Assembly: GCF_020969955.1 (NCBI RefSeq)
Contig: NZ_JAHDSX010000004.1
Coordinates: 1 to 32,000 of the forward strand
Length of the DNA: 32,000 nt
Direction of reading: 5' to 3'
Source of the DNA: Allobaculum fili
Lineage (GTDB): Bacteria; Bacillota_I; Bacilli_A; Erysipelotrichales; Erysipelotrichaceae
In this document: piece after piece, positions 1 to 19,140 of the stretch
Layout: the number at the start of each line of letters is the position of its first letter
Position numbering within the stretch: the stretch's first letter is position 1
Notes under the pieces: generated by a model
What the model was told of the DNA's origin: nothing
Databases searched by the model: none
Seen by the model: only the letters and a program-made list of their open reading frames with translations
Program-made: the position numbers and the translations under genes

Positions 1-35
1 ACCGGATCCGAAGTATGAAGAAAACGATGAAGAAT

Positions 36-82
36 AAAAAATACGCCAAGCGGGATCTCGAAAGGGATCCCGTTTAGCGTAT
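36..82 (-). terminator. Intrinsic terminator after the TIR-domain gene (possibly bidirectional)
   Basis: There is an outer stem ATACGC (41-46)/GCGTAT (77-82) and an inner stem CGGGATC (51-57)/GATCCCG (66-72). On the minus strand the hairpin begins right after the TAG stop (83-85) and is followed by a T-run (complement of the A-run at 36-40). Confidence 0.55.
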
Positions 83-2383
83 CTAATATTCAGTCTCGCG
101 TATACCCGTCGATTGTTTGACACTTACGCCAGGCAGTTCATGGCGATCCGAAAGATCCGTATAGATCTGTCTGCACTTTTCACGATATTGGTCTGCCTGA
201 GAAGAATTTCCGAGAACGGAATAGAAAATATCGAGCCTTGAATAAGCCGAGCCAAGGGACATCAGAATATCCGGCAGAGGTTTTGAGGAAGGATAGTTTT
301 CCAGCAGGTATGCTGCACGCAGGCAAAGTTCCATGCCTTCTTGATAGCGGTTCTCGTCATAGCACAGATCGGAGAGATCAAGCAGGGTAACCGCCAGAGA
401 GTTTTGTTCTGAAGGGGAAGGATGAAGGGAGCAGGCTTTTTCATAAAGGGCAATGGCCTTTCGATAACAGGACTCTGCACTGGAAAAATCTTTTTGAAGG
501 TAAAATGTTTTTCCCCCGGTTTTGTAACAGAGCGCACACAGATGTTCCGTAGCGGCAGTATGCAGATCCTCCAGATTTTCCTGTATGTATTCGATCAGTT
601 TGCGCGCTGTCTCTACTGCCTCATCCACATTCCATGAGGAGTTTTGGAGATAGAGAACAGACTGCCAGGCGCATCCGCACAAATATGTATGAAGCAGAGT
701 CGGATCCTGCGCCGAAAGCTTTATCGCCTGATCTAAGGCCTTTTTGACGATCGGGCGAGCTTGTTCCGACCGGTTTCTTTCGCAGAGAAGGTCGGACAAA
801 GTGAGCTCGCAGGTTACCAGAGTACGAATATGCAGAGAAGATTCATCCTGCAAAACAAGACTTTCGAAAATATCCCGTGCCTGTCGATAAAAGGATTCGG
901 CCTGGATCAGGTGCTGCTCTCTTCGTTCCAGTCTTCCCAGGTTGATCAGAAAGAAGCCCAGATCGACTTGGTAGACCGGATGGTTTTCCGCCTGAATCAT
1001 CTGGCGGTTCAGTCGAATTCCATCTTCCAGGCTGTCTCTGGCCTGTTCCAGCTGATTGAGATAGATGTACTGTTCGCCAATTTTCTGGTAAAAGACGCTT
1101 TTCGCACGTATGCAATACAAGGTGTCTTGCAAATTCGTATCCTCGTTGAGCGAAGGGATGCGCTCAAGAAGATTCTGGTCTGCGATTTCTTTTCCCTGCG
1201 TATAGAAGAAAATCGCTTCTTCCATCTGATTGTTCTGGGCAAGAATATCGCCTGCCGTTTCACAGGTTTCGATGCCAGGCTGCAGCTGTGCCGCGGCTTT
1301 TGCCCATAAAGCTGCCTGATCAAAATCCATACGAACACCAATTCCATCGCGATAGATCTTTACGAGTTCCTGAACAGCAGGGAAATAGTTCTGATCGGCT
1401 GCTTTACGGATCAGACGGATGCCTTTTTCATAGTCGATTTCGACATCCAGCCCGTACACATACGCGAGACCGATCAGATAGCAGTTCTTTGGTGTGAACG
1501 GCGTATAGTTTTTCTTCAGTTCGAAAAGCTGATTACGAAGATCGTTCGAATGTATCGGATAAACCGTATGGACGCCTGGAAAAACAGCTTCTAACGCCTT
1601 ACGATTGACGGTTTCATTTTCCATCAGTACCGGCAGAACCTTTTTCTGCAGCTTTACGGCCAGCGGGTACTCGATCTGCCGGACATAGTTTGGCTCGTAG
1701 ACCATATTGTTCGTTACCGCCAGAGCGAACAGATCGCTTTCCTGAAGACTGTTCTGGATGGAAAGGTCGAAGTTTTCACCGGGCTTCAGGAATTCGTCAT
1801 ACCAGATGGCGATGGTATACAGCTGTTCGTCTTCATGAATGACACGCATGAGCTCCTGCGCTTTCTGGCGATCTTTCTTGCGATAGCTCAGAAAAATCCG
1901 GTGCTCGAAGAGGGCGCTGACCTCTTTCTGCAGTTTGTCGTCAAGAAAAGCAGACTCCAGAAATTTCCTGAGTTTCGTTTCGTAGGGGATTTCGGTCACA
2001 TCGGAAGAAATCGGACAGATTGCCTGGACGGTTCCGCACTTCTCGTTAAATTCTTCGGTTAAAGAAAGGTCCGTCAGTACAGGGAGAAAGGGAATGTTCT
2101 TTACCTGAATCATCCGGAAAACCGTTGAAAAAGCGAGACAGTCCCCCTTCAGAAAATTTTCTGTGATCGGAATGACAATCAGGTTCATCAAGGACAGATC
2201 GAACACGTAATTGTCGAGATCTTCCGGGTGATCCGGATCCGGATCAAAATAAACTGTGCTTGGACAATAGCGAAGAATATCGTTCGTGATTCTCTCGAAC
2301 CAAATCGGAAAATCATCTGGATGAGCGGTAAAGTACACTTTGGCTTTGCCATGCGGATTCGAATGCTCAGGTTTCGTTTTCAT
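83..2383 (-). CDS. Tandem TIR-domain / Sel1-repeat / TPR-repeat protein (766 aa, cytoplasmic)
   Basis: I trimmed the ORF to the ATG at 2383 (MKTKPEH...), which follows AGGAGA with about 6 nt spacing. Residues ~162-255 (nt 1619-1900) read IFLSYRKKD...IWYDEFLKPGE...SDLFALAVT...NYVRQIEYPLA...VLPVL, which is the TIR_2 layout with a Glu in the SxWCxxE-equivalent position (codon 1670-1672). Residues ~14-105 (nt 2069-2344) form a second TIR-like fold (VYFTAHPDD...LIVIPIT...IPFLPVL) that lacks that Glu. Residues ~300-365 are two Sel1-like repeats (LAYVYGLDVEIDYEKGIRLIRKAADQNY...). The C-terminal ~400 aa are TPR-like helical repeats (AESFYRQARDIFESL, AESCYRKAIALYEKA). No signal peptide or TM segment is present. 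Confidence 0.85.
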   Translation of the reverse strand: MKTKPEHSNPHGKAKVYFTAHPDDFPIWFERITNDILRYCPSTVYFDPDPDHPEDLDNYVFDLSLMNLIVIPITENFLKGDCLAFSTVFRMIQVKNIPFLPVLTDLSLTEEFNEKCGTVQAICPISSDVTEIPYETKLRKFLESAFLDDKLQKEVSALFEHRIFLSYRKKDRQKAQELMRVIHEDEQLYTIAIWYDEFLKPGENFDLSIQNSLQESDLFALAVTNNMVYEPNYVRQIEYPLAVKLQKKVLPVLMENETVNRKALEAVFPGVHTVYPIHSNDLRNQLFELKKNYTPFTPKNCYLIGLAYVYGLDVEIDYEKGIRLIRKAADQNYFPAVQELVKIYRDGIGVRMDFDQAALWAKAAAQLQPGIETCETAGDILAQNNQMEEAIFFYTQGKEIADQNLLERIPSLNEDTNLQDTLYCIRAKSVFYQKIGEQYIYLNQLEQARDSLEDGIRLNRQMIQAENHPVYQVDLGFFLINLGRLERREQHLIQAESFYRQARDIFESLVLQDESSLHIRTLVTCELTLSDLLCERNRSEQARPIVKKALDQAIKLSAQDPTLLHTYLCGCAWQSVLYLQNSSWNVDEAVETARKLIEYIQENLEDLHTAATEHLCALCYKTGGKTFYLQKDFSSAESCYRKAIALYEKACSLHPSPSEQNSLAVTLLDLSDLCYDENRYQEGMELCLRAAYLLENYPSSKPLPDILMSLGSAYSRLDIFYSVLGNSSQADQYREKCRQIYTDLSDRHELPGVSVKQSTGIRETEY

Positions 2384-2629
2384 ACATTTCTCCTGTCTGA
2401 AGTAAGACTCTTCTTTTACTGTACACAGATCCCGCAAATCAGAAGCATGTTTTTTGACACTCCAGCAAAATCGCATTCCAGCCTGCTCTCTGGGGGACAG
2501 AATTCGGATTCCTGCTTTCATCTCTTGCGGGCGGTAAAGCGGAGAGGATGAAGAGCGGCTTCTATAATGAAGCTGACAGGTTTTACCCCAAAAGATGTCC
2601 TTTACTACTGGAAATGAGGGAAGAAATGT

Positions 2630-5053
2630 ATGGATTGGAAAAATAATTTTGATCGGGAGACGCTTTTTAACGGCTATTTACTGTTTCGGCAGGGAAGAGT
2701 CAGCCCGATTTATCGACAGGGCGATTACTGCTTTGCGATCGTCGATGGAAGAGAAAAAGTTCGTGCCCGTCTGGTGGACGATACCATCTCGGATCTGCAG
2801 TGCACCTGCCTTCCTTCCAGGGAAGGAAGACTCTGCGCGCACCAAGCGGCCTTTCTCTTTGCGCTGGAAAATACATTAGAAAATCAAAGACAGTCAGCTC
2901 CTGCAGCTGCAGAAAATCGGAACCATCCAGAAGAAGAAGAGGAAAAAGACTTCGAAGAGATGGACAGGGAAGCGGACGATTCAAATCGTGCAGATCAGGA
3001 TCTGGAAACGGAGGAACATACCGAAGCCGATCAAGAGGACACGGATCCGTATTTCGCCGAGCCAGATGAGCCGGAAGATTCCGTTGAACAGTGGAGGCGT
3101 CGTTTTGCGCAAAATCCAGGTTTAAGACGCTATCCGTACAATTTGGAAAATACGACAGAAAATTCGAACTCGAATTTCACCAATCCAAATGAATTTGAGC
3201 CGGAACAAGCCGCCTCTCCTGCGCAGTCCGAAGACGAATACGAACAGCCGGTCCTCGAACGCCCAGAAACTCCGTGGAAAAACCCGTTTCTGGATTCGCT
3301 GCTTAGTCCCCAAGGTCTGTTTGGGCAGGATGAGTCCGAAGCGACAAATCCATATGGAAGAAACAGAGAGGATCATCCCGTCGAATCGGCAATTCCTCCC
3401 AAAACGCAAATGCCTCGGGGTGCGGCAGTAACCTCTTTGGCACCAGATAAAGAAGCAATCTCTGGAGCGGATTCAGACGTTTCTGTAAAGGAAAACTTCG
3501 GCGCCCAGACGATGGAACCCAAAGCCCCTGTCCAGCCGGAGGAAGAAGCAGAAGATTCTTCAAACACGACTTACAGCGCCGCAAACAAATCCGAAGGCGC
3601 AAAAGAGCCAGCTCCCGAAAAAGAAACCGAGCAGCCAAATGTACAGGAGGAGACCTCACGCCAGACAAGCCAGACTTCGTTTGAAGCATCGATTGACTAT
3701 TCCAGCCTTTCGTCTCTGGTCGATTCGTTCTCACTGGAAGATCTTGCCGGTCTTGTGAAGGAATACGGAACGATGCATCCCGAAATGCAGGACTTCCTGA
3801 CCGCAAGCATCGCCAAATCGCATGCTGAAGAGGCACAGGATCTTCTGGAACGTCGGGCGATGCAGAAGATTGCTGAAATTTTGCAGGATCATCCGGAAAG
3901 CCGCTGCGGAAGCCGAGAAATCCGCAGCTTTGAAAACTGGATGGAAGAGCAGTGCGATGTCCTGGTCCGCAATGGCTCCGCCATTCTGGCTGCAGAACTG
4001 CTGGAAAGCATCCTCCTGACGCTGGAACGAACCGCGACCGTATCGAACGCGTCGTTTGTTCTGTCCTGCGGCGAATTTGTTCTGGATCTTTTAGAGAAAA
4101 TTGCGCTCCGGGCCGAACCGGCATTAATTAAAGAGCTGTTTTCCTGGATCGAATACCAGCTGGAAGCCAATAACCTTCCGGATTTCAAGGACCGTCTCGT
4201 GACCCTGACGGAACGCAACTGTTTTGATATCGCCGATTTGCAGGAAGTGCGATACCAGTCTCTCGTCCGTCTGTACGGAACGTCGCGAAAAGAAGGCAAA
4301 CTGCATGCCTACCGGGATCGTCTGCTTCGTTCCATTCTGGATCTCGAAAAAGAAAATCCGGAATATGAACGCGCCACATCCGCTTTTGAAAAAACGTACG
4401 GAATGCTTCCGGAAGTTCTCATTCTCAAGGCGGTCGATGCGCTGAATGAAAACGATCCGAAAGAAGCCGTCCAGCTTCTGAATCAGAGCCGGCGCAAGGG
4501 AATGAGCGCTTCTGAGGAAGAAAAAGTCATGCGGCTGATGATTCAGGCGCAGCTTAAACTTTCCCATCCGGAAAAGGCCGTCCAGGAGCTTTACGAACTG
4601 ATCTTTGTTTTACAAAACGGACGGCTCGAAGATCTCCAGCTTCTTCATGAACTGGATTCGAACGATCAGTGGAAAGACGATCTGGAAAAGATTGAAAAGA
4701 GCGTGGATGAAGACGTACTGATTGAACTGTACGATTTCCTGAAGGAAGACGAAAAGCTTCTCGATCTGATGGAAAAATCGAAAAACTATTACCACCTCTC
4801 GCGTTTTGCAGACCGTCTGTCGGGTGTTGACCCGGATCGAACCGCCGCTCTTTGGCTGAACTATGCAAAAGAGAGTGCGGCAAGCGCGCATTCGAGAAAA
4901 GCGTATCGCCGAAGTGCCATCGCTTTTGAGAAAGCGTCTCAAAGCGAAACATTAAAGGATCAGGTAAAGGAAGCTGTTCATAAGACAAGAGAAGACCACC
5001 GTCGCCAGCATGCCTTTATCGAAGAACTCGATCGTCTTGGCATTGTCAAATAG
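2630..5053 (+). CDS. SWIM zinc-finger protein with a long acidic disordered linker and a C-terminal helical-repeat domain (807 aa)
   Basis: The ATG at 2630 is preceded by GAGGGAAG. The SWIM signature CxC-x8-CxH appears in LQCTCLPSREGRLCAHQAA (nt 2801-2842). Nucleotides ~2882-3690 encode an E/D/P/S/T-rich low-complexity stretch. Nucleotides ~3700-5050 encode an alpha-helical TPR/HEAT-like region. The stop is TAG at 5051-5053. Confidence 0.85.
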   Translation: MDWKNNFDRETLFNGYLLFRQGRVSPIYRQGDYCFAIVDGREKVRARLVDDTISDLQCTCLPSREGRLCAHQAAFLFALENTLENQRQSAPAAAENRNHPEEEEEKDFEEMDREADDSNRADQDLETEEHTEADQEDTDPYFAEPDEPEDSVEQWRRRFAQNPGLRRYPYNLENTTENSNSNFTNPNEFEPEQAASPAQSEDEYEQPVLERPETPWKNPFLDSLLSPQGLFGQDESEATNPYGRNREDHPVESAIPPKTQMPRGAAVTSLAPDKEAISGADSDVSVKENFGAQTMEPKAPVQPEEEAEDSSNTTYSAANKSEGAKEPAPEKETEQPNVQEETSRQTSQTSFEASIDYSSLSSLVDSFSLEDLAGLVKEYGTMHPEMQDFLTASIAKSHAEEAQDLLERRAMQKIAEILQDHPESRCGSREIRSFENWMEEQCDVLVRNGSAILAAELLESILLTLERTATVSNASFVLSCGEFVLDLLEKIALRAEPALIKELFSWIEYQLEANNLPDFKDRLVTLTERNCFDIADLQEVRYQSLVRLYGTSRKEGKLHAYRDRLLRSILDLEKENPEYERATSAFEKTYGMLPEVLILKAVDALNENDPKEAVQLLNQSRRKGMSASEEEKVMRLMIQAQLKLSHPEKAVQELYELIFVLQNGRLEDLQLLHELDSNDQWKDDLEKIEKSVDEDVLIELYDFLKEDEKLLDLMEKSKNYYHLSRFADRLSGVDPDRTAALWLNYAKESAASAHSRKAYRRSAIAFEKASQSETLKDQVKEAVHKTREDHRRQHAFIEELDRLGIVK

Positions 5054-10874: not shown

Positions 10875-11325
10875 TTGCCGCTTAAGCAGGAAGCCCGATA
10901 TTTGAAAAAGCTGCCTTCAGCAAATTAAAAAATGGAGTGAGCACCAAATGATATTTGAGAAAGACGAAATATCGTCTGAAAGAATCACTGATTGCCTGCG
11001 AAACATAAAAAGGCCAGCGTGCTACGTAGAGGAAACGAGATTGAAACAACAAATAAATCGGTAATTCTGTTCAAATTAATCATCTGAAAGCGCTAAGAAT
11101 TAACTAATTAGTATAAACGCATTGCCTGAACTGGTATTTCTTTGACTGATTTATGAACCGATAATAAAAGCTGATCAATTCCTGTTGAAAGAAGGGCAAT
11201 CTTTGAACAGGGCTATCAGATCTTCGGGCGTGACCGAGAACGATTTCACGGTCAGATCGGATGAAACGCCAGGGCAGGCCTTTTTTCCGGTTAACAGATC
11301 TGAGATGCATAAGAAAGGAAACAGC

Positions 11326-14300
11326 ATGAAATTTAGAAAACTCACAGCTTCCTTGCTGTCTGTTGCACTTTCTGGAACAGCTGCAGTTTCAACCGTTCTT
11401 CCTGCTGCGTCCATGGCTGTACATGCCGAAGAAACAACTCCGACGGCAACGACAGACATGACGCAGTATGGCACCAATCTTGCACTCAATAAAACCGCGA
11501 CAGCAAGTTCTCAAGAAGCGGATTCTGTCAGAGCTTCCAATGCGGTGGATGGAAATACCTCAGCTAGCACTTCCCGCTGGGGTTCCAATGTAGGCAATGG
11601 TCCGGACTGGATCTATGTTGATCTGGCCAAACCATCTGTTGTGAACGCCGTTCGTGTGTTCTGGGAATCGCACAAGGCTACATCGTATAAAATCCAGTAC
11701 GCGACAGAAAACCCCGGAGCAGAAGCCTCCTGGACAGACGTAAAAGTCTTTAATAACCGTCCTGCGGAAATCACAGAAGTTATTGCGTTTGATACGCCGG
11801 TAAATGCTCGTTATATCCGTCTGTATATTGGATCGCATACACCAGATGATCCAATCCTCACTTCGATCCCAGAATGGAACTCGGTTTCCATTTATGAGCT
11901 GGAAGTGTATGGCGAAATCGATGCGAACTATCAGGATCCGCAGGAAAACGTAGCGCTGAATAAAACCGGAACGGCCAGTTCGACCGAAACGGCAGACTTC
12001 ACCGCAGCAAAGGCACTGGACGGAGATACATCGTCCAGAAGTTCACGCTGGAGTTCCGCTGAAGCAGACGGACCGCACTGGATTTACGTCGATCTTGGCA
12101 AAGAAATGGACGTACAGACCGTACGCCTCTACTGGGAAACACGCAAAGCCAGTAACTATACCATTTCAACCGCAACGGACGAACATACAGCCGAAGAACT
12201 GGCTGGAGAAGATGTCTGGACTCAGCAGTATTCCAATACTAGCCATCCAGCCGATCTGAAAGAAACCATCAGTCTGGATGCTCCAGTTAAGGCACGCTAT
12301 GTCCGCCTGAAAATCAACACCTTTACCCCGGAAGATCCGGATGGAGGCGTGACCTGGAATACCATTTCCATTTATGAAATGGAAGTATACGGCGGTATTC
12401 CACAGGCGCAGAAATGCAATTCCGTTGCCGATATCAAGGATGCTCTCGAACTGAACCCAGTTACCGCAGAATCCACGAAAGTTACAGCTAAGCTTCCAGA
12501 ATTTGATGCCGATCTGTTCGCCGTAGAATACAACGGTACCGACCTCGAACAGGTTGTTGATGCCAATCAGAATATTCTGAAACCATTGGTGGATAAGCAG
12601 GTCAAAGTTTCCTATAAGATTACGGACAAAACGACCAGCGCTTACGACTTCAAGGAAATTACAGTCACGATTCCTGGTGAACATCAGGTTGATGAAAACG
12701 ATAATGCAGTTCCGGAAATCCTGCCTCCAATCCAGGAATGGAAGGGTGAAGAAAGCGGAAGCTTTGCGATTACTGAGAATACGAAAGTTCAGTACGCAGA
12801 TGATAAATTTGCATATGCAGCCAAGGCGCTTGCCGATGACTATAAGGAAATGACCGGCAAAACGCTGGCTGTAGAAAAAGTAGCTGCTATTCCATCAGCA
12901 GCTGTGAACGATACCATTACGTTCGGTGCGGGTACTCCGGAACTTGGTGAAGAAGACTACCGCATGACGATCGGTCCAAAATCCATTCAGATTGGAGCCA
13001 ACCATTCTACCGCAGCGTATTGGGCAACCCGTACCATTCTGCAGGGACTCAACAACAGCGAAGACAATACTCTGGCTGCCGGTGAAATGCGTGACTATCC
13101 AACGATGAAGGTGCGCGGTCTGATTCAGGACGTTGGACGTAAGACCTTTACGCTCGACTATCTGAAACAGCTGGCCAAAGTGCTGTCCTGGTATAAACTG
13201 AACGACTTCCAGGTTCATCTGAACGATAACTATATCCAGCTCGAACAGTATAAGAACGTCAACGGCGAAGACCGTCGTCTGATCGATCCGTATTCGGCGT
13301 TCCGTCTGGAATCGGATATCAAAAAAGGCGGAAATGACGGTAAGAACCAGGCGGATCTGACCGCAAAAGACGTCTTCTATACGAAAGAAGAATTCGCGGA
13401 CTACATCGAAGAATGCAAGAAGATGGGTATCACCATTGTTCCTGAATTCGACATGCCGGCTCACGCGCTGGCCATGACGAAAGTCCGTCCGGATCTTAAA
13501 ACGCCGGATTCGGATATGCCGCATGTAACCACGAACGGCAACCGTTCCCCGGCTGACCATCTCGACCTGAACCATCAGTACGACGATGTCATGCAGTTTG
13601 TTAAATCCATCTGGGACGAATACACAACTGGCGATGACAAAGTCTTCGATACGCCGGTCATTCACATTGGTGCCGACGAATACGAAGCCGGTTCTGCTGC
13701 CTACCGTAAGTATGTAAACGACATGTTCAAGTACGCCGAAGACAAAGGCTATACCCCGCGTGTGTGGGGTTCTCTGACTCAGCTGAGCCAGGGGGATACG
13801 GTACATGGCGCGACCTATAACGAAGATGGAACCGTTAAATCCCGTCGCCAGATCAACCTCTGGAACTTTGGATGGTCCAATCCAAAAGCTATGTACGATC
13901 TGGGCTTCGACTTGATCAACTGCTCTGACGGAACCTTCTATATCGTTCCAAACGCAGGCTACTACTACGATTACCTCGGCGATTCGCATCTGTTTAACAC
14001 GGATATCACTCGCATGGGCAGCACCAAAGTGCCTGTCGGTGACGAGCAGATGGTCGGCGGTGCCTTCGCCATCTGGAACGACATGATCGACAACGCCGAA
14101 AACGGCATGTCCGAATATGATATTTACAAACGTACGATTCGTGCAGCCGGCATGATGGGAACCAACCTCTGGGGCAAGGGATCCATCACCCAGACAGAGG
14201 CTTCTGCGATTATCGATCAGTATCCGGAAGTTCCGGGAACCAACTTCAACTACAATGTGAACAAATCCGAAAACGGAGCGATCACTTCTGTAGATATGGA

Positions 14301-16047
14301 ATCCACAACGGATACCACCGGACCAACCAACAGCCTGACTGCTGGAAATGACGTTCTCAAAGAAGCGGCAGGCCGCAAGGTTCTTGACCTTTCTTCTGGA
14401 AAAACAGCCACATTTGATACGCTGAAAACAGCTGGTCTTTCCAACACGCTGCGCGTGAAAGTAAAACGTACGAGCGCGTCCAAAGATGAGCAGATTCTGT
14501 TTGAATCGCCATACGGAACGATCAAAGCGGTTCAGAAAGAAACCGGAAAAGTCGGCTTCTCGCGTGAAAACCACGATTACTCCTTCGACTACGAACTGCC
14601 GGTCGGCGTATGGACCGAACTTGAATTCCGCAACGAATTCGAAAAGTTCTCTCTGTATGTAGACGGAGAATTCGTAGAAACCGTTGGACGTGACGGGCGC
14701 GGATCGCTGAAAGCGACCATGATGTTCCCGCTCCATACCGTCGGCAGTGCAGAGCATCCATTCCAGGGCTATGTCGACGATATCCGTGTCGGAACTACCC
14801 CGGAAACTGAATTTGTCAATACGATCGCTCTCGATCGCAAGATCGATCTGCTCGGACAGGTTGCTCTTGCTGGCAATACAGACCTGATCAAGGAAGCGCT
14901 CGGCGTATCCGGCAAATATGCACCGACGGCTGCAGAAGTTGCAGATGTGACGAAGAAAGTTGAAGATGCAATTTCCAAAGCGGAATACGAACGTGCAGAC
15001 TACAGCCGCATTGACGCTCTGCTCGCTCTTGAACCAGAAGATCCAAGCGTATACAAAGCCTCTTCCATGGATGCCTTCAACCGCGCGAAAGACAATATCG
15101 TTCGCGATCTGCCGAAAGCTTCGCAGGCTGACGTCGATATGATGGCCTCCAACCTGGCTTCGATCCTTCTCGGAATGGAACTGCAGGATCTCAGCAAGTT
15201 TGAACTCGTTTCGCAGGATATCATGAAAGCTACGGCTTCCAGCAACCAGAGCGGGGAAGAACCAGCCAAGGCGATCGACGGCGATACGTCCACGATGTTC
15301 CATACCGACTGGGAGAATACCACCATGCCGCACTGGCTCGACATTGAATTTGCGACTCCGCAGACGGTCGATCAGATTCTGTATACGCCAAGAACCGGCG
15401 GCGGAAACGGTCACCCGCTGACTTACGACATCCAGACCAGCGATGACGGCAAGACATACACGACCGTTTACTCTGGTGAAATGACGAACTCTGGAACTGT
15501 AAAGACGATTAATCTCCCTGAAGCCGTAACTGCGAAGCACATTCGCATGGTGGCTAAGACGGCCCGCAACAATAACTTCTCCTGCGCGGAAATCAACTTC
15601 CACAAAGTCGTTACCGGAGCAGATACAGAAGGTCTGAACGAAATCATCGCTCAGGCGGATGCTCTCACGGCAGCCAGCTATCCAGAATCTTCCTGGAACG
15701 CCATGCAGACTGTACTGGCCAAAGCCAAAGCTCTGCCCGATACCGCAACACCGAAAGAAGTGGAAGCGATGAAGGGCGAACTGAGTCAGGCCATCTGCGC
15801 ACTGGCTGGCTCGACCGTTGTCTACGACTACACCCTGCTGCAGACCGTGATCGATGACATCACTCCAGCAAAACTTGCTGACGTCAAAGGCGCTGCTGCA
15901 CTGAATACGAAACTTGCTGCTGCGAAAGCGCTCGTAAACAACGCAGAATCTCAGGAAGCCATCGATACGATGACTGAAGAACTGCACGCCGCATGGCTTG
16001 TTGCTCGCTACAGCGTATCGACAGATAAACTGGCGGATCTCAAATAA
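11326..16047 (+). CDS. Secreted multidomain glycoside hydrolase family 20 (beta-N-acetylhexosaminidase / lacto-N-biosidase type) with three F5/8-type-C (CBM32) modules, a LamG-like module and FIVAR-like helical modules
   Basis: The start at 11326 (MKFRKLTASLLSVALSGTAAVSTVLPAASMAVHA, a signal peptide) follows AAAGGAA. There are two tandem discoidin modules (ALNKTATASS...WIYVDL...IYELEVYG and ALNKTGTASS...WIYVDL...IYEMEVYG). The GH20 catalytic block reads LNDFQVHLNDN...VPEFDMPAHA...HIGADEYE (D-E pair). A LamG-like segment ends in GYVDDIRVG. A third discoidin module reads AIDGDTSTMFHTDW...AEINFH. No LPXTG motif, C-terminal TM segment or obvious wall-binding repeat is present. Confidence 0.9.
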   Translation: MKFRKLTASLLSVALSGTAAVSTVLPAASMAVHAEETTPTATTDMTQYGTNLALNKTATASSQEADSVRASNAVDGNTSASTSRWGSNVGNGPDWIYVDLAKPSVVNAVRVFWESHKATSYKIQYATENPGAEASWTDVKVFNNRPAEITEVIAFDTPVNARYIRLYIGSHTPDDPILTSIPEWNSVSIYELEVYGEIDANYQDPQENVALNKTGTASSTETADFTAAKALDGDTSSRSSRWSSAEADGPHWIYVDLGKEMDVQTVRLYWETRKASNYTISTATDEHTAEELAGEDVWTQQYSNTSHPADLKETISLDAPVKARYVRLKINTFTPEDPDGGVTWNTISIYEMEVYGGIPQAQKCNSVADIKDALELNPVTAESTKVTAKLPEFDADLFAVEYNGTDLEQVVDANQNILKPLVDKQVKVSYKITDKTTSAYDFKEITVTIPGEHQVDENDNAVPEILPPIQEWKGEESGSFAITENTKVQYADDKFAYAAKALADDYKEMTGKTLAVEKVAAIPSAAVNDTITFGAGTPELGEEDYRMTIGPKSIQIGANHSTAAYWATRTILQGLNNSEDNTLAAGEMRDYPTMKVRGLIQDVGRKTFTLDYLKQLAKVLSWYKLNDFQVHLNDNYIQLEQYKNVNGEDRRLIDPYSAFRLESDIKKGGNDGKNQADLTAKDVFYTKEEFADYIEECKKMGITIVPEFDMPAHALAMTKVRPDLKTPDSDMPHVTTNGNRSPADHLDLNHQYDDVMQFVKSIWDEYTTGDDKVFDTPVIHIGADEYEAGSAAYRKYVNDMFKYAEDKGYTPRVWGSLTQLSQGDTVHGATYNEDGTVKSRRQINLWNFGWSNPKAMYDLGFDLINCSDGTFYIVPNAGYYYDYLGDSHLFNTDITRMGSTKVPVGDEQMVGGAFAIWNDMIDNAENGMSEYDIYKRTIRAAGMMGTNLWGKGSITQTEASAIIDQYPEVPGTNFNYNVNKSENGAITSVDMESTTDTTGPTNSLTAGNDVLKEAAGRKVLDLSSGKTATFDTLKTAGLSNTLRVKVKRTSASKDEQILFESPYGTIKAVQKETGKVGFSRENHDYSFDYELPVGVWTELEFRNEFEKFSLYVDGEFVETVGRDGRGSLKATMMFPLHTVGSAEHPFQGYVDDIRVGTTPETEFVNTIALDRKIDLLGQVALAGNTDLIKEALGVSGKYAPTAAEVADVTKKVEDAISKAEYERADYSRIDALLALEPEDPSVYKASSMDAFNRAKDNIVRDLPKASQADVDMMASNLASILLGMELQDLSKFELVSQDIMKATASSNQSGEEPAKAIDGDTSTMFHTDWENTTMPHWLDIEFATPQTVDQILYTPRTGGGNGHPLTYDIQTSDDGKTYTTVYSGEMTNSGTVKTINLPEAVTAKHIRMVAKTARNNNFSCAEINFHKVVTGADTEGLNEIIAQADALTAASYPESSWNAMQTVLAKAKALPDTATPKEVEAMKGELSQAICALAGSTVVYDYTLLQTVIDDITPAKLADVKGAAALNTKLAAAKALVNNAESQEAIDTMTEELHAAWLVARYSVSTDKLADLK
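11470..12388 (+). repeat. Tandem duplication of a discoidin/CBM32 module inside the GH20 gene (about 11470-11915 and 11944-12388)
   Basis: The two ~150-aa segments share the motif series LNKT-ASS, DG(N/D)TS, SRW, GP-WIYVDL, VR-(F/Y)WE, ARY(I/V)RL and SIYE(L/M)EVYG. This is protein-level similarity; the DNA has diverged. Confidence 0.6.
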
Positions 16048-17787: not shown

Positions 17788-19140
17788 ATGAAGCTCTATA
17801 ACACCTATTCGCAGAAAATCGAAGAATTCAAGCCGATGGAAGACGGCAAGGTTTCGATGTATGTCTGCGGTCCGACGGTCTATAACGATCCGCATATCGG
17901 AAATGCCAGACCTGTCGTCGTTTTTGATACGCTTTACAAAATCTTCAAGGCACTTGGCTATGACGTCACCATGGCAAGCAACTACACCGATGTCGATGAC
18001 AAGATCATTGCCAAGGCGATTGAAGAAAACACTACGGAAAAAGTGATTACCGATCGCTATATTGAGGAATTTGAACACGTTCGCCATGATCTTGGCGCCC
18101 AGACGCCGGATTATACTCCGCGCGTAACCGAGACGATGGATAAAATTATCGCCTTTATCGAAATGCTCGTCGAAAACGGGGCAGCATACGCGGTGGACGG
18201 CGATGTCTACTTCCGTGTCGGCTCCGATACGCACTATGGAGAAATTTCCCATCAGCGCCTAGAAGATCTGATGGTCGGCGCCCGCATTGACGAAAATACA
18301 AAAAAAGAAAACCCGCTCGACTTTACGCTCTGGAAAAAGACCGATAAAGGCATTCAGTGGGATTCTCCCTGGGGAAAAGGCCGTCCCGGCTGGCATACCG
18401 AATGCGTTGTAATGATCAACGATGTCTTTGGCCGTCCGCTGATCGACATTCACGGCGGCGGAAACGACCTGAAGTTCCCGCATCACGAAAACGAAGTGGC
18501 GCAGGCCCGCATGAGCTGGGATACGTCTCTGGCCAATACGTGGGTTCATAACGGCATGATCAACATCGCCGATGAAAACCATGAGATCAACAAGATGTCC
18601 AAGTCTTTAGGCAACGTCCTGCTGGCCAAGGATCTGATCGATCAGTATTCCGGTCCGGTCTGCCGTCTGATGCTCATCAGCACGCATTACCGCGCACCGC
18701 TGACGATTTCGAAGGAAGCACTGGAGTCTTCCGCCAGAGAAATCGCAAAAATCCGGAAACCTGCAGCGCAGGCTCTTTTTCAGCTCGATCTGGCAGACGC
18801 TTTTGATCCGAATGCTGAAAAAGATGAAGCCAGCTGGAACGCCTTCATGGACGCCATGGCCGATGATCTGAACACCCCGAACGCTATTTCCGCGCTTCAG
18901 GCAGCCATCAAGGAACTCAACGGTGCGCTGCGCAAGCGGGAACTGGATTACAAGCGTCTGAATGCGCTTTACGCCTCCATTGCCGGTATGCTTTATGTAC
19001 TGGGACTCGATCTGGATCTGCATCACGCAACGGATGAACAGAAGGATCTGTATCGCGCCTGGAAAGCAGCTGTAAAGGAAAAAGACTTCGCCGCCGCTGA
19101 TGCGTGCCGGGCGAAGCTGATGGAACAGGGACTGGTTTAA
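17788..19140 (+). CDS. cysS: Cysteine--tRNA ligase
   Basis: The 450-aa product carries the class I motifs HIGN (HIGH) and KMSKS (INKMSKSLGN), plus the conserved GWHTEC block. Confidence 0.95.
   Translation: MKLYNTYSQKIEEFKPMEDGKVSMYVCGPTVYNDPHIGNARPVVVFDTLYKIFKALGYDVTMASNYTDVDDKIIAKAIEENTTEKVITDRYIEEFEHVRHDLGAQTPDYTPRVTETMDKIIAFIEMLVENGAAYAVDGDVYFRVGSDTHYGEISHQRLEDLMVGARIDENTKKENPLDFTLWKKTDKGIQWDSPWGKGRPGWHTECVVMINDVFGRPLIDIHGGGNDLKFPHHENEVAQARMSWDTSLANTWVHNGMINIADENHEINKMSKSLGNVLLAKDLIDQYSGPVCRLMLISTHYRAPLTISKEALESSAREIAKIRKPAAQALFQLDLADAFDPNAEKDEASWNAFMDAMADDLNTPNAISALQAAIKELNGALRKRELDYKRLNALYASIAGMLYVLGLDLDLHHATDEQKDLYRAWKAAVKEKDFAAADACRAKLMEQGLV

Follow-up and report, generated by a model that had tools for sequence, protein, structure and literature searches.

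An IS66-truncated protein of Allobaculum fili with a tandem TIR-like/TIR_2 head and Sel1/TPR repeats

The locus and its interruption by an IS66-family element

The window, i.e. the whole stretch of 32,000 nucleotides of Allobaculum fili DNA that was analysed (contig NZ_JAHDSX010000004.1, forward strand), opens with the end of an insertion sequence and continues into a truncated coding sequence for a tandem-TIR/Sel1/TPR protein on the minus strand (83..2383). According to the ORF list the product comprises 766 aa, encoded by 752 native codons and 14 codons contributed by the insertion sequence, followed by a stop. The start at 2383 is backed by a Shine-Dalgarno-like AGGAGA read from the sequence (2389..2394, minus strand), separated from the ATG by 5 nt (window 2384-2388), and near-identical homologues begin at the same methionine with MKTKPEH. 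We conclude that the ORF represents a genuine gene whose product is cytoplasmic. In agreement with the first-pass annotation, which had noted the lack of an export signal, simple hydropathy inspection of the 766-aa product reveals neither a signal peptide nor a transmembrane segment: its N-terminus is hydrophilic, and over stretches of 19 residues the Kyte-Doolittle mean peaks at 1.45. When looked up by exact sequence, the product was not on record, as expected of a truncated allele, and an Rfam scan of the window gave no match.

Window positions 1-127 are the terminus of an IS66-family insertion sequence (right end, plus strand), which has cut the gene after codon 752. Positions 1-128 equal 2718-2845 of the sequence L081 at 100% identity, and upstream of the shared end L081 contains TnpB_IS66 (E 3e-29) and DDE_Tnp_IS66 (E 8.9e-60). 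The same terminus is found beside another flank in L082, and the other end of the element lies outside the window. The portion inside the window holds the last 11 transposase codons with their stop (2-37, plus strand), a hairpin resembling a terminator (about 38-85) and a terminal repeat (81-127), which on the minus strand ends in GTAAGTG. Read in the direction of the gene, the element contributes the tail VSVKQSTGIRETEY plus stop codon (83..127, minus strand), with the stop of the 766-aa ORF at 83-85. Divergence from the intact allele starts at 128|127, where the DNA alignment breaks abruptly, and the same bases form the IS terminus in both L081 and L082. When searched in genome contigs and viral contigs, a 28-mer spanning the junction had no match in either; the junction was resolved with a shorter 25-mer against metagenome contigs. 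Inverted 47-nt copies in L081 were also considered as an invertible segment, or shufflon, that swaps the C-terminus; this reading was rejected because IS66 TnpB plus transposase, and a transposase of IS110 type, are encoded by the flanking genes, which identifies the copies as IS termini.

The intact form of the protein is cytoplasmic and 1334 aa long, and the ORF is a recently arisen, IS66-truncated allele of it. Conspecific strains carry the 1334-aa gene at the same locus. The insertion is missing from at least four other assemblies in which the PFK protein is identical; three of them contain the complete gene and the fourth reads through codon 752 to the contig end. Up to residue 752 the 766-aa product is 98% identical to the 1334-aa P0001, in which the repeat array runs on for 582 residues beyond the cut point. 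Whether the copy in the source genome is a pseudogene in the making, with a truncated product that lacks stability or function irrespective of the role of the family, appears to us evenly balanced. The break running into the IS66 terminus, the insertion-free assemblies and the position of the cut inside the repeat array all point to decay, whereas the 752 kept codons are otherwise intact, with only 14 nt differences from the intact allele (6 synonymous and 8 non-synonymous), and the conserved head and ~385 repeat residues remain. Moreover, natural family members span about 450 to 1300 aa, so that folding and activity would still be possible for a product of 766 aa. The protein without its last 582 residues may be impaired or dead in the source strain, and the copy in the window is itself of limited value since it is truncated by an insertion sequence. 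For the comparison with the intact allele, a pN/pS of 0.38 was obtained, which with only 14 differences is too weak to use.

Architecture of the conserved head and the repeat array

The order of domains on the single cytoplasmic chain, TIR-like, TIR_2 and Sel1/TPR, was already indicated by the first-pass annotation and is now backed jointly by Pfam, profile-profile comparison and a structure model, with the TIR folds recovered by Pfam for TIR_2 and by hhalign and Foldseek for the N-terminal domain.

The canonical TIR_2 domain covers residues 160-262 (1598..1906, minus strand), with profile matches to AbTir, BtTir and TIR-1/SARM1 chains. The Pfam TIR_2 match at residues 163-259 (E 4.8e-10, 40.4 bits against a gathering cut-off of 28) bears out the TIR_2 pattern initially read at residues ~162-255. 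It is the most conserved region of the protein, with 55% mean identity to homologues, in which the FLSYRKKDR and WYDEF-L-PGE motifs are invariant. In the AlphaFold2 model of residues 1-370, TIR_2 strands at 161-166, 191-195, 218-223 and 248-253 alternate with helices, and the model matches the TIR domains of TRAM (TM 0.66) and SARM1 (0.61) as well as PdTIR in Foldseek.

The putative catalytic glutamate, Glu238 in NYVRQIEYP (codon 1670..1672, minus strand), is located on helix alphaC and is invariant in 121/121 homologues. It aligns with the glutamates of TIR-1/SARM1, of K9Q5L4 TIR_2.5, which produces v-cADPR-x, and of COPEUT_02740, an ADPR producer. In the AbTir-group alignment, however, Glu238 lies 4 residues downstream of the catalytic glutamate, a position taken by Val234; across the AbTir-group and H2CG15 alignments the offset amounts to 4-8 residues. 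The earlier proposal that this residue occupies the catalytic position agrees with its conservation; relative to AbTir-type enzymes its register is ambiguous, with an offset of +4. Judged from these alignments, Glu238 is likely the equivalent of the catalytic glutamate in short-helix TIR NADases and not in AbTir-type ones. AbTir, BtTir and BtpA are the best PDB sequence matches and have the WYDEF-L-x-G-(D/E) betaB/BB-loop motif in common with the window protein. They differ in having a coiled-coil N-terminus, no repeats and an alphaC helix that is 4 residues longer, which is why their catalytic glutamate aligns with Val234 and not with Glu238.

The N-terminal domain with its linker helices (residues 1-152; 1928..2383, minus strand) has no match at E<=1 in the Pfam scan. 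A family profile of this domain nonetheless aligns with the family TIR_2 profile at 97.6% probability (E 4e-12, hhalign), and the AlphaFold2 model of residues 1-152 has a mean pLDDT of 90 and beta-alpha-beta topology. Searched against the PDB with Foldseek, the model retrieves TIR domains as 17 of its 20 best matches, occupying ranks 1-17 and including 8/8 at E<=0.001, with TM scores of 0.47-0.60 among the first 50. RPS4, L6, PdTIR, BtpA, RUN1, RPP1 and SPARTA are among the best matches, with AbTir and SARM1 ranking lower. Both domains keep the same E/D-x3-A-x8-P register. Together, the profile and model comparisons support the view that the N-terminal 150 residues represent a second, divergent TIR-like domain. 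In all 150 proteins listed, the N-domain profile matches a second stretch, most simply read as the TIR_2 domain.

The column that aligns to Glu238 in the profile-profile comparison, i.e. the N-domain equivalent of the TIR catalytic glutamate, is occupied in the window protein by Val88 (codon 2120..2122, minus strand), consistent with the original description of an N-terminal copy devoid of this residue. Among the 121 homologues the column holds E in 63, D in 32 and V in 22, and is thus acidic in 95/121. The idea that a pseudo-TIR and a TIR form a built-in dimer survives in part: the 1-370 model, confident as one body (pLDDT 89.4, pTM 0.86), is compatible with TIR-type domains that are paired in a fixed manner, but the 'pseudo' character is limited to the clade of the window protein.

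The conserved head is completed by two Sel1 repeats (residues 296-367; 1283..1498, minus strand), with a Pfam Sel1 match at 301-333 (34.3 bits against a cut-off of 30.7), invariant residues G305, A307, Y308, G311, E315, A336 and G347, and additional matches of the 1-370 model to SEL1L, HcpC and LpnE. The TPR-like helical repeat array then occupies residues 368-752 (128..1282, minus strand), where TPR_12, TPR_2, TPR_8 and TPR_10 exceed the cut-off between residues 372 and 651. The ~400 aa of TPR-like repeats reported at first are hence confirmed as repeats, yet they constitute an array that the IS66 element has cut at the 3' side and that natively extends further. The array shares 18% mean identity with homologues, as opposed to 38-55% for the head.

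Family distribution and genomic surroundings

With clustering at 50% identity and a search by the N-domain profile, the family proves large: ~1,400 clusters match at E<=1e-30, and the number rises to 2,371 at E<=1e-3. The 150 listed profile matches are proteins of ~520-1900 aa, in all but two of which the match is N-terminal. A conserved head of ~365 residues, composed of the divergent TIR-like domain, TIR_2 with the invariant glutamate in E-x3-A-x3-G-K-x-h-h-P and two Sel1 repeats, is followed by a hypervariable TPR array. Most members derive from Clostridia of the human and animal gut and rumen, with several paralogues per genome; seven assemblies have 2-3 separate family loci each, and tandem arrays of family genes occur at 7/79 loci. 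Taken with the paralogues and tandem arrays, the hypervariability of the repeats suggests that recognition has diversified, as in sensors of conflict or defence systems. The NCBI name of one member is just 'tetratricopeptide repeat protein', and we know of no explicit earlier description of the tandem TIR-like/TIR head. To our knowledge, fusions of TIR to helical repeats are frequent among bacterial proteins, yet function is known for almost none of them.

In the source species the gene resides at a fixed locus that is stable in conspecific strains, and its neighbours there are housekeeping genes, as initially noted. We inspected the two nearest genes on each side at 76 homologous loci (238 genes) and found no conserved partner gene; the neighbours of the closest homologues, P0002 and P0003, are unrelated. 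Applied to these 238 neighbours, PADLOC returned, as raw counts within +/-2 genes, CARF-PD-DExK and PD-T4-2_B twice each and REase_I, SoFic and PDC-S04 once each, the remaining matches being to generic models, i.e. no clear defence-gene signal. The protein itself gave a weak ThsB TIR match at 1e-4 and otherwise no significant PADLOC match, and no ThsA-like neighbour was found in the window or among the commonest families of the 238 homologue neighbours. The pairing that defines Thoeris, a ThsB-type TIR protein beside a ThsA effector with SIR2/SLOG or Macro domains, is thus not seen. No family copies were detected in phage and plasmid collections, and no adjacent secretion genes were found at the locus or at homologous loci.

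Two candidate partners were set aside. The divergent 807-aa neighbour is an orphan (3 clusters), is absent from 79/79 homologous loci and has relatives that do not adjoin TIR-TPR genes. A sigma-factor neighbour cluster, present at 7 loci, was treated as coincidental because its positions and orientations are inconsistent.

Proposed function and alternatives

Based on the domain analyses and comparisons to characterized TIR proteins, we tentatively propose, with slightly less than even confidence, that the family protein is a latent NADase gated by its Sel1/TPR repeats, of which the ORF in the window is an IS66-truncated allele. The second TIR would act as a latent NAD(P)+ glycohydrolase or cyclase, against which the first TIR-like domain may pack as its partner within the chain. 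The solenoid of Sel1 and TPR repeats would then keep the TIR pair silent in the absence of a bound ligand or protein, or alternatively drive oligomerisation, a mode of gating that we liken to the ARM solenoid over SARM1 and to the TPR part over the N-glycosidase part of BcTpr. With SARM1 and C. elegans TIR-1 the window protein shares the SYR[RK] strand motif, an alphaC glutamate at an equal distance from betaD (E-x3-A-x3-G-K-x-h-h-P) and, within one chain with the TIR, a helical solenoid that could gate the enzyme. However, SARM1 is arranged as ARM-SAM-TIR, in reverse order, whereas the window protein lacks the SAM oligomerisation domain and has an extra N-terminal TIR-like domain, and the similarity is weak (E 0.04, PDB profile search). 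In the BcTir/BcTpr anti-phage system of Bacillus cereus, BcTpr, which combines an N-glycosidase with TPRs, works with the catalytically dead BcTir (preprint, bioRxiv 10.1101/2023.05.26.542521). Dead TIR partner, NAD-cleaving N-glycosidase and tuning TPR there represent a conceptual counterpart of the fused pseudo-TIR, TIR and TPR, likened by description and not by sequence; the two components are encoded by a two-gene operon, and BcTpr has 415 aa with a MilB-like N-domain.

The sole family member with an NADase assay is COPEUT_02728 of Coprococcus eutactus ATCC 27759, whose excised second TIR (residues 169-293) is listed with the NADase product 'None' (Weagley et al. 2022, Cell Rep, PMC9092222, Table S2). 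In that study, 32/44 TIR domains of a 26-strain model community were inactive, only the excised domain of COPEUT_02728 was assayed, and the protein was assigned to BPPS Group_01 (PMC9092222). The label TIR_2.2 given to its domain implies that the authors' HMM search saw a first TIR-type match. With 38% identity across the 370-aa head (E 1e-76), COPEUT_02728 belongs to the same family and has the same N-domain, TIR_2 and Sel1 motifs, but it differs from the window protein by five residues inserted ahead of the NYV...E helix and by Asp in place of Val at the N-domain position.

This result favours an alternative that we nevertheless consider rather doubtful, namely that the family consists of non-enzymatic scaffolds or adaptors, in which TIR-type and Sel1/TPR domains serve only for assembly, for instance in a regulatory, envelope or stress pathway of anaerobic Firmicutes, and the invariant glutamate is structural or binding-related. 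The hydrophobic Val234 at the catalytic position of the AbTir-group alignment, the variable, housekeeping-type neighbourhoods with a locus that is stable in conspecific strains, and the plain NCBI label would all be compatible with such a role. On the other hand, the TIR core is extremely conserved, its SYR[KR] and E-x3-A-x3-GK motifs are shared with active NADases, and most members keep an acidic residue at matching helix positions of the two duplicated domains, which is more typical of an active site.

Within the proposal of a latent, repeat-gated NADase, the biological role is less certain. The anti-phage effector put forward by the first-pass annotation is not borne out by the surroundings of the family, given the lack of a conserved partner, the scattered PADLOC matches at the 76 loci and the absence of phage or plasmid copies. 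An anti-phage or abortive-infection role is possible by analogy to known systems, and goes no further than analogy because the allele is truncated, the pseudo-TIR is clade-limited, COPEUT_02728 yielded no product and the neighbourhoods hold no partner. It is conceivable, though in our view unlikely, that the family forms a new class of NTPase-free, single-chain TIR immune sensors in gut anaerobes. There, the linked TIR pair would replace ligand-induced oligomerisation in forming a composite active site, with two catalytic acids in some clades and one in others, and the TPR paralogues would sense different phage or cellular cues. STAND/NLR-like sensors (Avs, bNACHT) and the SIR2-repeat protein DSR2 similarly join an effector to a variable helical-repeat sensor; unlike these, the window protein has no P-loop NTPase or SIR2 domain in the Pfam scan, and the NTPase is also absent from the PADLOC scan.

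That the protein is a host-directed, Tcp-like factor, disturbing host TLR signalling or depleting host NAD, seems highly improbable. In its favour, family members come chiefly from bacteria of the gut and rumen, and the WYDEF-L-x-G motif likens the TIR to AbTir/BtpA-type domains. Against it, neither an export signal nor adjacent secretion genes are apparent, a dedicated host effector would not typically occur as numerous paralogues whose repeats are hypervariable in commensal and rumen anaerobes, and no other feature supporting this earlier suggestion was found.

If the head is a self-contained, repeat-gated NADase, it would offer a simple model for the assembly of an active site through TIR-TIR contacts, and in the gut microbiome the family would be a plentiful source of metabolites derived from NAD, or of defence against phages. 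If inactive, it would represent a clear bacterial case of TIR domains as pure scaffolds. A comparable arrangement exists in the Actinobacteria group 6 proteins with TIR and C-terminal TPR, which exceed 700 aa, contain many TPRs and are of unknown function (Toshchakov & Neuwald 2020, PMC7075850). As in the window protein, an N-terminal TIR is followed by many TPRs, but group 6 belongs to another TIR sequence group and has a single TIR without the Sel1 pair.

An IS66-family insertion in the TIR/Sel1/TPR gene

The gene under study (83..2383, minus strand, inside an open reading frame at 83..2521) encodes a 766-aa TIR-like/TIR_2/Sel1/TPR protein. Inspection of the sequence places AGGAGA before the start at 2383, which is common to near-identical and more distant homologues. 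Pfam assigns TIR_2 to residues 163-259 (E 4.8e-10, 40.4 bits versus a cut-off of 28), Sel1 to residues 301-333 (above cut-off) and several TPR families, each above cut-off, between residues 372 and 651. A search for a hydrophobic segment in the protein found none (maximum 19-residue hydropathy 1.45), the NCBIfam scan returned nothing relevant, and PADLOC gave only a weak ThsB TIR-like match (1e-4). The first-pass annotation was thus correct in describing TIR_2 and Sel1/TPR regions and no export signal.

The reading frame is cut after residue 752 by an IS66-family insertion sequence. The match to P0001, a 98% identical homologue of 1334 aa, stops abruptly after that residue, and at the DNA level the query and the intact allele part at window 128|127. 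A 25-mer of window 90-114 is found in two gut-metagenome contigs, L081 and L082. Positions 2718-2845 of L081 equal window 1-128, and directly upstream lie genes for IS66 Orf2/TnpB (PF05717, 3e-29) and the IS66 transposase (PF03050, 8.9e-60), the C-terminus of which (...PDPKYEENDEE*) is encoded at window 2-37. In L082 the same end (GTTAGTG..., one mismatch) adjoins unrelated DNA, and the edge of the IS is thereby fixed at window 127. Its terminus, GTAAGTG, resembles the GTAAGCG ends typical of IS66 elements. The element, of about 2.5 kb with TnpB and a 613-aa transposase, spans L081 356-2845 and L082 45-2533; the window begins inside it, with its end at 1-127, and it supplies the stop and the 14 final residues of the 766-aa product. 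Human-gut metagenome contigs thus have it in at least two other contexts. Next to the L081 copy lie a fragment of an IS110-type transposase and another IS terminus in inverted orientation.

The same gene order is present in at least four other assemblies encoding an identical PFK protein, three of which carry the complete 1334-aa gene (L087, L088 and L089, the last being GCA_047010065.1); in the fourth (L090) the reading frame runs beyond codon 752 without a break and reaches the edge of the locus at 913 aa. The insertion is recent, as the 752 codons that remain differ from those of the intact allele encoding P0001 (L001) at only 14 nucleotides. The shortened product keeps the conserved head and about 385 residues of repeats and lacks the last 582 residues of the full-length form, and we give loss of function of this copy through the insertion an even chance.

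Two TIR-type domains and the position of Glu238

All 121 homologues have Glu238 (codon 1670-1672), and FLSYRKKDR, WYDEF-L-PGE, N232, P240 and A242 are equally invariant. Comparison of the family profile with PDB sequences places Glu238 on the glutamate of C. elegans TIR-1 (WVHKE), and profile alignments place it on the SxYCxxE glutamate of the v-cADPR-x producer K9Q5L4 TIR_2.5 (95.4% probability) and on that of the ADPR producer COPEUT_02740 (77% probability). The E-x3-A-x3-G-K-x-h-h-P spacing to strand betaD is common to the family and these three proteins. In contrast, ungapped alignment to the AbTir/BtTir/BtpA group (94.9%) and to H2CG15, all with a longer alphaC helix than the family, leaves the family glutamate 4-8 residues downstream of theirs, with Val234 in the catalytic position. 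Weighing these alignments, we consider Glu238 likely, with fairly good confidence, to be equivalent to the TIR catalytic glutamate.

The N-terminal domain is not detected by Pfam. For residues 1-155, a profile based on 121 homologues matches the family TIR_2 profile (hhalign probability 97.6%, E 4e-12, 64 columns), and an AlphaFold2 model of residues 1-152, with 33 aligned sequences as input, has alternating strands and helices (mean pLDDT 90, pTM 0.86). TIR domains made up all eight Foldseek PDB matches of this model at E<=0.001 and 17 of the 20 best, including RPS4, L6, PdTIR, BtpA/TcpB, RUN1, RPP1 and SPARTA, with AbTir and SARM1 ranked lower (TM scores 0.47-0.60 in the first 50 matches). 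Profile and predicted fold together identify it as a TIR-type domain.

In the profile alignment, Val88 occupies the same helix position as Glu238. In the family alignment (A1, columns of residues 88 and 238) both domains keep the acid-x3-Ala-x8-Pro register, so that Ala follows at +4 and Pro at +13 in the N-domain as in TIR_2. Across the 121 members the residue-88 column contains Glu (63), Asp (32) or Val (22) in most cases, i.e. an acid in 95, replaced by valine in the clade of the query gene and its close homologues P0002 and P0003. The earlier label 'pseudo-TIR' therefore fits this clade, but not the family, most members of which keep the acid.

Family distribution and proposed mechanism

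Searched exhaustively, the N-domain profile matches 2371 clusters at E<=1e-3, and 1418 at the stricter E<=1e-30. A word-indexed protein search gave more than 1272 matches, and species-representative genomes have at least 529 matching stretches. Among the 150 matches listed, all in proteins of about 520-1900 aa, the domain is N-terminal in all but two, and every protein has a second matched stretch, given without its position in the protein, for which TIR_2 is the simplest reading. The top match, P0126 (1903 aa), has four matched stretches, the best at residues 938-1091, and resembles a fusion of two family proteins or a single gene that reads through both. Most of the stretches in species-representative genomes come from gut and rumen Clostridia (Lachnospiraceae, Oscillospiraceae, Acutalibacteraceae, Ruminococcus and others), and a few from Chloroflexota, Spirochaetaceae, Muribaculaceae and Bacilli bins. 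One member is named 'tetratricopeptide repeat protein' by NCBI. The query gene is a real, moderately interesting example of a little-studied family.

Family proteins in 79 loci range from about 450 to 1300 aa. Seven assemblies have two or three separate loci each, and tandem arrays of two to four copies occur in 7 of the 79 loci; head-to-tail arrays of three or four paralogues are seen at L010 5305-13286, L013 9989-19914 and L063 40-8567. The head (N-domain, TIR_2 and Sel1 pair) is predicted to form one compact body, as the model of residues 1-370 reaches pLDDT 89.4 and pTM 0.86; in the PDB this model matches Sel1 proteins and TIR domains. Mean identity of homologues to the query is 55% for TIR_2, 39% for the Sel1 pair, 38% for the N-domain and 18% for the TPR part. 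These hypervariable repeats and the paralogue expansion point to diversified recognition.

The best-supported reading is that the family protein would be a latent TIR enzyme of the cytoplasm, an NAD(P)+ hydrolase or cyclase, in which the active TIR would be paired in cis with the TIR-like domain and controlled by the Sel1/TPR solenoid. The domains, their conservation, the compact head model, the size and distribution of the family and the IS truncation are shown by the data above, and catalysis, gating and any defence role are inferred. The sensor-effector proposed in the first-pass annotation thus stays a candidate, and the gene is itself truncated. A pure scaffold function for the family is a serious rival. 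Among 160 TIR domains assayed by Weagley et al. 2022 (PMC9092222), the excised TIR_2.2 (residues 169-293, BPPS Group_01) of C. eutactus COPEUT_02728 gave the product 'None', and this protein (their Table S2) clearly belongs to the family (38% identical across 370 aa, E 1e-76). The negative is of limited weight, because just 12 of 44 community TIR domains were active in that study. COPEUT_02740 of the same strain, unrelated to COPEUT_02728, combines a TIR at the N-terminus with a helical region at the C-terminus, and its excised TIR makes ADPR (PMC9092222); TIR-plus-helical-region NADases therefore exist in gut Firmicutes. TIR + TPR proteins longer than 700 aa are also described in actinobacteria (Toshchakov and Neuwald 2020, PMC7075850). 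A preprint (bioRxiv 10.1101/2023.05.26.542521) describes the anti-phage pair BcTir/BcTpr, in which an N-glycosidase-TPR protein is bound by a catalytically dead TIR and has its NAD cleavage tuned by the TPR part.

Genomic neighbourhood

Neighbours in the window are a PPi-type PFK, an aminotransferase, an AsnC regulator, GAPDH, a GH20 hexosaminidase, CysRS and a SpoU methylase. A defence-island location is not supported: clustering all open reading frames of the 79 loci yielded no conserved neighbour, tblastn of the head found no match in 50,697 phage or 72,556 plasmid records, and an uncalibrated PADLOC scan of the two closest genes to either side of the homologues (238 proteins, 76 loci) gave only scattered matches. 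Many were to generic models (sigma-like MzaA, cysteine desulfurase 'DndA/SspA', AAA ATPases); the specific ones were CARF-PD-DExK and PD-T4-2_B (two each) and REase_I, SoFic and PDC-S04 (one each). CARF-PD-DExK/Csx1-like and PD-T4-2_B-like proteins each appear once in both neighbour batches (A5, A7), and three neighbours in these batches are inosine-uridine nucleoside hydrolase genes, both too few to interpret. The commonest neighbour Pfam families are sigma-70 regions, RyR, peptidase S9 and ABC transporters. An Rfam scan of the full 32 kb gave no match, also in the region that precedes the CysRS gene at 17788.

Transcribed divergently from the TIR gene, an 807-aa protein (2630-5053, plus strand) has a SWIM-like C-x-C...C-x-H motif close to the N-terminus, a central part that is long, acidic and of low complexity, and no Pfam match; the PADLOC candidate model PDC-S62 matches it at residues 7-111 (1.7e-8). 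It has only three related clusters, and one relative lies at a prophage edge, adjoining lysis genes (L093).

In 5 of the 79 loci, spanning Chloroflexota and Clostridia, the TIR-TPR gene adjoins a gene for a protein of about 550-750 aa (L009 11850-14039, L014 13559-15550, L016 6717-8969, L019 13549-15201, L040 6627-8603). This protein has HD-phosphohydrolase-like motifs (RDHYSH...FHDIGYP...LCDELQ), in some copies a C-terminal RyR domain, and no PADLOC match; it may be a subfamily-specific partner. The GH20 hexosaminidase (11185-16047, plus strand; 1620 aa, three F5/8 type C domains) is consistent with a glycan-degrading gut organism.
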